Made by a program: the position numbers and the translations under genes
Origin: Octopus vulgaris
Lineage: Eukaryota
DNA: 64,000 nucleotides
Assembly (NCBI GenBank): GCA_951406725.2
Contig: OX597822.1
Location: 5,642,001 to 5,706,000, forward strand
Reading direction: 5' to 3'
Notes under the pieces: model-generated
Databases searched by the model: none
What the model saw: the letters and a program-made list of their open reading frames with translations, nothing else
Told to the model about the DNA's origin: nothing
Shown: piece by piece, positions 28,503 to 28,740 of the stretch
How the letters are laid out: every line of letters starts with the position of its first letter
Numbering within the stretch: the first letter of the stretch is position 1

Positions 28503-28740
28503 CCTTGAGGAATTCTAACCTTCCACACACAAAAATGTACATATTTTCCTGATAGACATTGATGAAATCAATTTTGGTTCAATATCTGTCAATGTCTATC
28601 AGGAAAATATGTACATTTTTGTGTGTGGAAGGTTAGAATTCCTCAAGGCATGATACATGCCTTTCAGATCACCATAGACTGATGAAATCAATTTTGGTTC
28701 AATATCTGTCAGTCTACGGTGATCTGAAAGGCATGTATCA
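28503..28740. repeat. Double inverted repeat: two adjacent hairpins with identical 26-nt loops
   Basis: 60-bp perfect arms at 28503-28562 and 28589-28648; 32-bp arms at 28651-28682 and 28709-28740 (1 mismatch). Both loops are TGAAATCAATTTTGGTTCAATATCTG. Confidence 0.95.

Follow-up and report, generated by a model that had tools for sequence, protein, structure and literature searches.

Two long hairpins with the same 26-nt loop stand side by side in a 64-kb stretch of the Octopus vulgaris genome (64,000 nt of contig OX597822.1, here called the window, whose positions are used throughout). How did this arrangement arise, is it genuine germline DNA, and does it do anything? Our leading answer, in which we place about even confidence, is that a 120-bp gain at this site is the likely scar of one recent concerted repair event in apparently non-coding germline DNA and is probably functionless.

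Anatomy, age and inferred ancestor of the twin hairpin

Along the + strand, the order of the segments is A-L-A'-CA-B'-L-B, spanning 28503-28740. The segments, the words at their junctions and the single mismatch can be read directly from the letters; the assignment to old and new DNA below is a proposal.

28502..28506, + strand: ACCTT microhomology, left copy, at the outer end of A
28503..28562, + strand: arm A, 60 nt, putative original left flank
28560-28591, + strand: first copy of a 32-nt exact direct repeat, consisting of L and its TGA/TCA ends
28563..28588, + strand: loop L, copy 1, 26 nt, from repeat comparison
28589..28648, + strand: A', perfect inverted copy of A, putative new DNA from a top-strand fold-back
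28645..28663, strand not applicable: 8-bp perfect palindrome with a 3-nt loop across the inner join, candidate snap-back signature
28649..28650, + strand: CA dinucleotide at the inner join, between the two stems
28651..28682, + strand: B', inverted copy of B with one change at 28674, putative new DNA from a bottom-strand fold-back
28683..28708, + strand: loop L, copy 2, the same as copy 1 letter for letter
28709..28740, + strand: arm B, 32 nt, putative original right flank
28742..28746, + strand: ACCTT microhomology, right copy, just past B

As the initial annotation had claimed, A and A' form a perfect 60-bp inverted repeat around the 26-nt loop, B' and B form a 32-bp inverted repeat with one mismatch around the identical loop, and the two loops lie 120 bp apart in direct orientation, within the 32-nt exact direct repeat. 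L is doubled directly and is never inverted at the locus. The stems had been said to abut; the hairpins are indeed adjacent, but the two nucleotides CA separate them.

In the 64-kb window, a perfect 60-bp arm is expected about 3e-28 times by chance and a 32-nt direct repeat about 2e-11 times. The runner-up among perfect non-repetitive inverted arms outside the locus was 12 bp long. RNA folding, a check proposed with the original claim, found the twin hairpin strongly structured (-164 kcal/mol, z -22), with none of 200 shuffles equally stable, and a very stable fold was predicted for either strand. A chance origin is ruled out by the tiny expected counts, the short runner-up arm and the fold z-score. 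L occurs exactly twice in the window, with up to 3 mismatches allowed, and no second copy of the locus was found there.

When 120 bp are taken out, what is left is an ordinary unique locus, X-A-L-B-Y, and the extra DNA is a second L together with inverted copies of both flanks. We infer from this arrangement that X-A-L-B-Y was the pre-event locus. A greedy parse of the present locus from the 120-bp-shorter one gave five pieces: forward 192 nt to the end of L, reverse 57 nt (A'), forward 4 nt, reverse 30 nt with 1 mismatch (B'), and forward 168 nt onward from the start of L. As in templated insertions, the whole insert is nearby sequence, with opposite-strand copies, made of 5 local segments with 1 mismatch. 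With X-A-L-B-Y taken as the ancestor, a single reverse-complement fragment accounts for at most 57 of the 88 unexplained bases. A single four-point template switch was rejected, as two non-contiguous fragments (57 and 30 nt) are required. The earlier suggestion of one template-switching event can therefore stand if that event had several switches, but not if it was a single switch. On the present parse, three switches and a 2-nt snap-back would be needed to build the structure.

The short quasi-palindrome that the initial annotation had placed at the loop is present, and a second one lies across the end of B.

28549..28562, + strand: left arm of the older 14-bp quasi-palindrome (12/14 match), in the putative pre-event locus
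28699..28712, + strand: right arm of the same quasi-palindrome, formed by the end of L and the start of B
28723..28751, strand not applicable: second older quasi-palindrome (9-bp arms, 11-nt loop), which straddles the end of B, the stopping point of the B copy

With the 12/14 repeat around the loop, each strand of the pre-event site could have formed a hairpin (-5.0 and -5.4 kcal/mol, folded as DNA). The folding z-scores of its core were -3.2 and -4.2, for a window picked post hoc and against a background in which 5 of 80 windows reached -3.1 or lower. Priming would have used a weak register (forced, it comes to +0.5 and +0.4 kcal/mol), and a more stable one, the 12/14 register 10 nt away, was passed over; both points count against a simple fold-back history. 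Of 28,836 unique positions, 0.9% begin a stem of at least 8 bp that has one bulge and encloses 15-40 nt; the fold-back primer site is uncommon, though not rare.

Among 118 duplicated positions, only one differs. It is a C-to-T transition, from CpG to TpG, at B' position 28674, and it falls on the sole CpG in the duplicated DNA (28717 in arm B); the window as a whole is CpG-depleted (o/e 0.52). No difference was found at the 116 non-CpG positions (95% upper bound on divergence, 2.5%), in support of the recent origin proposed earlier. A random error would strike the 2 CpG positions of the 118 about 2% of the time, and the lone CpG change argues for genuine and young germline DNA, not an assembly artefact. 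The mismatched A equals the aligned base of arm A; the mismatch may thus have been written during the event itself and is no sure sign of age.

An assembly or library artefact has to be considered: fold-back chimeras typically have perfect inverted arms like those seen here, and the event-internal explanation of the single mismatch also leaves room for it. However, an artefact would take two mirrored fold-backs plus a templated join, and it would have to place the sole mismatch, a transition, on the sole CpG (2 of 118 positions). The window contains no N and spans kilobase microsatellites, which would suggest a long-read consensus, and the plasmid and phage collections searched held no match to the locus. 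We consider an artefact very unlikely.

Junctions and the histories that could have written them

At both tips, a TCA end pairs with a TGA of its own strand, 26 nt further upstream, and the two tips are mirror images of each other. The tip microhomology TCA/TGA is 3 nt, or 8 nt with a bulge, and that of the inner join is the 4-5-nt word AAGG(T); microhomology was found at every junction. The 5-nt word ACCTT is common to the outer ends of both copied arms. Words of at least 5 nt were present in 65 of 11,236 candidate junctions (0.6%), and words of at least 4 nt in 2.4%.

A plain microhomology join predicts TC at the inner join, but CA is found instead. This CA completes the 8-bp palindrome at 28645-28663, which holds primer, insert and microhomology. 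Snap-back synthesis-dependent microhomology joining (SD-MMEJ) is defined by an inverted repeat motif spanning the junction, and a TG/CA primer class has been reported (PMC5728401). The palindrome has this form, and CA is what a B-copy snap-back on a CA/TG primer would write, so that it fits the SD-MMEJ motif definition. Judged by its letters, the inner join bears the marks of synthesis-dependent microhomology joining.

We think it probable that the locus was made in a single concerted event, whether by two-ended fold-back or by template switching at a fork. In the two-ended version, which we prefer, each strand of the older quasi-palindromic site would have been nicked once, with some 32 nt between the two nicks, to produce two 3' tails, each bearing L. 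Each TCA-ended tail would have folded onto the TGA of its own strand and primed synthesis, over 57 nt of A on the top strand and over 29 nt of B on the bottom one. The bottom end would then have snapped back again on a 2-bp CA/TG primer, adding TGCCTT. Its CCTT end would have annealed to AAGG at the end of A', and fill-in and ligation would have completed the join. Afterwards, the lone CpG in the new B copy was likely deaminated. We infer the order of these steps and the initiating nicks, and the enzymes (Pol delta or Pol theta) are proposed purely by analogy.

Staggered nicks with fold-back at both ends, followed by microhomology joining, would account in a single event for the doubling of the loop in direct orientation, the mirror symmetry and the CA. 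A one-ended reaction of this type has been shown in yeast: the end of a break loops back on itself at an imperfect 10-bp repeat, with 41 nt in the loop, and Pol delta copies 2 to about 150 nt before end joining (PMC11724301). According to a review, long locally templated insertions arise from breaks with 3' overhangs, and asymmetric nicks have been proposed as the origin of duplications in rice that carry local filler (PMC7407515). Larger tandem duplications close to inverted repeats are reported from helq-1 mutants of C. elegans (PMC8078821). It counts against the two-ended model that two complementary 32-nt tails should usually re-anneal.

The same concerted class includes a history with another initiating lesion and no double-strand break, in which a single nascent strand at a stalled fork switched templates three times. 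Having reached the end of L, the strand would have folded back and copied A'; by way of AAGG(T) it would then have moved to the lagging template for B', and TGA would have led it back to the start of L. Microhomology at all three junctions agrees with this path. It also has relatives: the published explanation of hsa-mir-561 is three switches with copying of two opposite-strand fragments (PMC10710096), and great apes show return-before-departure events, in which a segment ends up directly duplicated (PMC7954356). However, an earlier human-chimp study saw none of the latter among 794 high-confidence cases (PMC5453318). The fork path also requires a fourth micro-switch for CA, and the mirror use of one primer pair, automatic in a two-ended event, would be a coincidence. 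We regard fork switching as possible but clearly the less likely of the two.

The initial annotation had also suggested a tandem duplication whose middle was inverted. Such a stepwise history would consist of a 120-bp tandem duplication by ACCTT slippage, a flip of the 94 nt in the middle, bounded by TCA and TGA, and a quasi-palindrome correction that turned TC into CA. Its geometry is right: the ACCTT-bounded unit is exactly 120 nt, and duplication with inversion agrees at 448 of 451 positions, leaving three unexplained before the TC-to-CA correction. Pure inversions account for 45% of human-chimp switch events (PMC5453318). Against this, three independent rare events would have to fall within a period that shows 0 of 116 non-CpG changes (95% bound 2.5%), and the inversion would have bypassed the better 12/14 repeat pair. 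We hold the stepwise history to be unlikely. The three histories yield identical letters, from which a two-ended break cannot be proved.

Genomic setting and mobile elements

Microsatellites and interspersed repeats abound in the window, which is AT-rich. Its trinucleotide arrays include ATT at 45049-46802 (about 1.75 kb), TCT at 39073-39826 (about 0.75 kb) and TAT at 60120-60976 (about 0.86 kb), and a young 32-nt tandem duplication lies at 56262-56336 (2.3 copies, 95% match). Of 11 candidate proteins, an ORF derived from a repeat matched 7, each of them annotated as a predicted Octopus vulgaris protein.

We scanned 341 ORFs against Pfam: 333 of 351 filtered ORFs and 8 at or near the locus, none shorter than 38 codons. 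The 18 omitted ORFs were those over the LTR-element remnant and U6. Five of the 341 matched, four as retroelement pieces and one weakly as Ribosomal_S17 (E 0.007, below the cut-off), which was taken as chance after inspection of the DNA. None of the 5 ORFs across the hairpin locus matched Pfam, and protein word-index searches with the locus frames were empty, which is weak evidence. The three phmmer matches at the locus were summed weak matches to tandem-repeat proteins and were rejected; the phmmer match with E 5e-41 was the sum of 22 weak matches to a tandem-repeat ORF, with 28% identity in the best pair. A 46-codon frame between AG and GT, seen by eye on the minus strand of the putative pre-event locus, had no homologue and was rejected as a coding exon. 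No host gene was detected around the hairpins by Pfam (341 ORFs of at least 38 codons) or by protein searches, and the locus is apparently intronic or intergenic.

About 1.1 kb from the hairpins, at 27243-27431, there is a GC-richer, coding-looking stretch that is open on both strands and has no Pfam match. At 29280-29419 (-), about 540 nt away, a SINE head, whose box motifs we take to be of tRNA type, is aimed at the hairpin locus. Pol III read-through from it to the hairpins is unlikely because of the intervening T runs.

The only Rfam match at gathering level in the whole window was U6. This full-length U6 snRNA copy at 40651-40757 (+) (109 bits, with a T-run end) is a candidate gene or retrocopy, and a SINE-like repeat copy follows it directly at 40761-41142. 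Nearby, a look-alike hairpin at 41168-41216 (11-bp perfect inverted repeat, 27-nt loop, with a partial repeat at 44423-44481) had a local score of 38 against a background of 34 +/- 6 in 174 windows and is unrelated to the locus. Searches for tRNA genes and numts gave 0 genes in the window.

Retroelement remnants are present elsewhere. For example, a broken LTR-retroelement pol remnant at 9387-10976 (-) contains reverse transcriptase, RNase H and integrase pieces by Pfam. Three ORFs without a Pfam match were judged by eye: that at 4065-4583 (-), which adjoins a hammerhead-like core at 4721, resembles a remnant of a Penelope GIY-YIG endonuclease, and those at 22477-23085 (+) and 25376-25588 (-) look like decayed pieces of LINE reverse transcriptase.

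The loop had been likened to a decayed hammerhead, a resemblance that failed on inspection as the core geometry is absent. CUGAUGA occurs only at the derived B'-L junction, with UUGAUGA in loop copy 1; CAAU, not GAAA, follows the short loop stem, and a later GAAA comes without a stem II of at least 3 bp. Rfam gave no hammerhead at the locus among 55 and 31 matches with E up to 10, and no family reached its gathering score there. A scan for the CUGANGA core gave 1 match in the window, away from the hairpins. A positive control came from 62997-63045 (-), where Rfam found Hammerhead_1 with E 0.0025, below the gathering score; this is a minimal type I hammerhead with an intact core and a palindromic stem III. 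Hammerheads of this kind are typical of Penelope-like elements. Hammerhead-like CUGANGA...GAAA cores were also seen at 4721-4762 (+) and 15916-15947 (-); Rfam gave no match to the latter, which limits its sensitivity for hammerheads. A C/D snoRNA was rejected at the hairpins, with UGAUGA and CUGA 48 nt apart end to end and a best snoRNA score of 21.6 bits against a cut-off of 44.

These observations bear on whether the locus is a transposon footprint or remnant, such as a LINE or Penelope target-site duplication with a twin-primed insert, an hAT excision hairpin, a MITE or a decayed Penelope hammerhead. L is duplicated directly, resembling a target site. Since the window also contains, away from the locus, remnants of retroelements and a type I hammerhead, nickases encoded by such elements could have made the initiating nicks. 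However, the insert is all local, and its templates of opposite polarity would be unlike twin priming on one RNA. Hairpins from hAT excision close without a 26-nt non-palindromic loop, unlike those seen here. The locus has one copy, and no related dispersed or MITE-like copies, in the 64-kb window, and the hammerhead core fails at the locus. A transposon origin seems to us scarcely credible.

RNA potential, known relatives and meaning

Could the locus be an expressed RNA element, a young pri-miRNA or ADAR substrate, kept by selection however it was formed? Its fold is very stable on either strand, and the B hairpin (32-bp stem, 26-nt loop) is of pri-miRNA size and begins with UG. Features that guide miRNA processing include the UG, UGUG and CNNC motifs and single-stranded basal flanks. 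Loop UGUG was found in 0 of 12 registers, CNNC at +16 to +18 in 0 of 12, and basal UG in 2 of 12, one register per strand of the B hairpin. One flank of each stem is the other stem, so that the neighbour is double-stranded instead of a single-stranded base. The ideal pri-miRNA stem is about 35 bp (PMC10710096); the B hairpin fits this size and a loop of at least 10 nt, and the 60-bp A hairpin is too long. At least 18 human miRNA genes trace back to template switches, out of more than 6,000 hairpins, and the small share of comparable primate hairpins that became curated miRNAs, about 18 of 6,000, argues against a miRNA here (PMC10710096). The lack of a detected host gene, the near-perfect arms without compensatory change and the lack of an Rfam match at gathering level at the locus also speak against a selected RNA element, which we consider improbable; miRNA birth here is possible but unlikely.

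Octopus RNA editing is found mainly in introns and 3' UTRs (PMC9699675). ADAR editing of the hairpins would be plausible only if the locus is transcribed. The idea of Dicer acting on long dsRNA is made less likely by a survey that reports molluscs to be without a dedicated endo-siRNA pathway (PMC12479628).

The ingredients of the locus are all known. Other rearrangements, dupINVdup and DUP-TRP/INV-DUP, also combine duplicated and inverted segments at one locus, but they differ from the octopus locus in segment order and in their far larger scale. The closest relative is hsa-mir-561, which shares the number of switches, the two opposite-strand fragments and a long one-step insertion that makes a hairpin (PMC10710096). 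It is an annotated miRNA with an outgroup allele, whereas the octopus hairpins are known from a single sequence. Four-point template switches likewise copy the opposite strand at short range and leave perfect inverted repeats (PMC5453318; PMC7954356), and their return-before-departure types create direct repeats, as here (PMC7954356). A four-point event copies one fragment, while the octopus locus needs two non-contiguous ones of 57 and 30 nt.

Yeast foldback inverted insertions also have a long loop (41 nt, against 26 nt here) and a short imperfect repeat, with limited synthesis and end joining at 0-5 nt of microhomology, as here (PMC11724301). In yeast, one end folds and the other captures it, whereas at the octopus locus both sides would have folded, with the loop doubled. 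Snap-back SD-MMEJ by Pol theta places primer, insert and microhomology in one inverted motif, like the inner join, but its insertions are mostly below 15 bp (PMC5728401). For Pol theta acting alone, products of up to about 30 nt are described (PMC11724301), and the 57-nt octopus arm exceeds both.

A three-switch, two-fragment insertion has thus already been published. We found no description of the mirrored, doubled-loop geometry in the literature, in the parts available to us, although the figure of mir-561 might show it. The locus is probably a neat example of a known mutation class, the complex templated insertion, and is probably real, young and neutral.

A broader idea, to which we give only a small probability, is that the twin hairpins are the footprint of a recurring, unnamed class of symmetric two-ended fold-backs at staggered nicks, possibly cut by endonucleases of the retroelements in which octopus genomes are rich, and that they are here transcribed and ADAR-edited, with the 32-bp hairpin entering the miRNA pathway. 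If this is true, each event of the class would supply two ready dsRNA stems at once. The class would then offer a tangible origin for the 90 novel miRNA families of octopus, which are stated to be of unknown source (PMC9699675). The A-L-A'-B'-L-B pattern preserves both fold-back primers and the joining word, and it can serve as a search template in any genome, with no outgroup required. If the pattern recurs with strict tip symmetry, both ends of a lesion would fold back in the germline, which the four-point model does not cover, and the origin of octopus miRNA hairpins and editing substrates would become directly testable.
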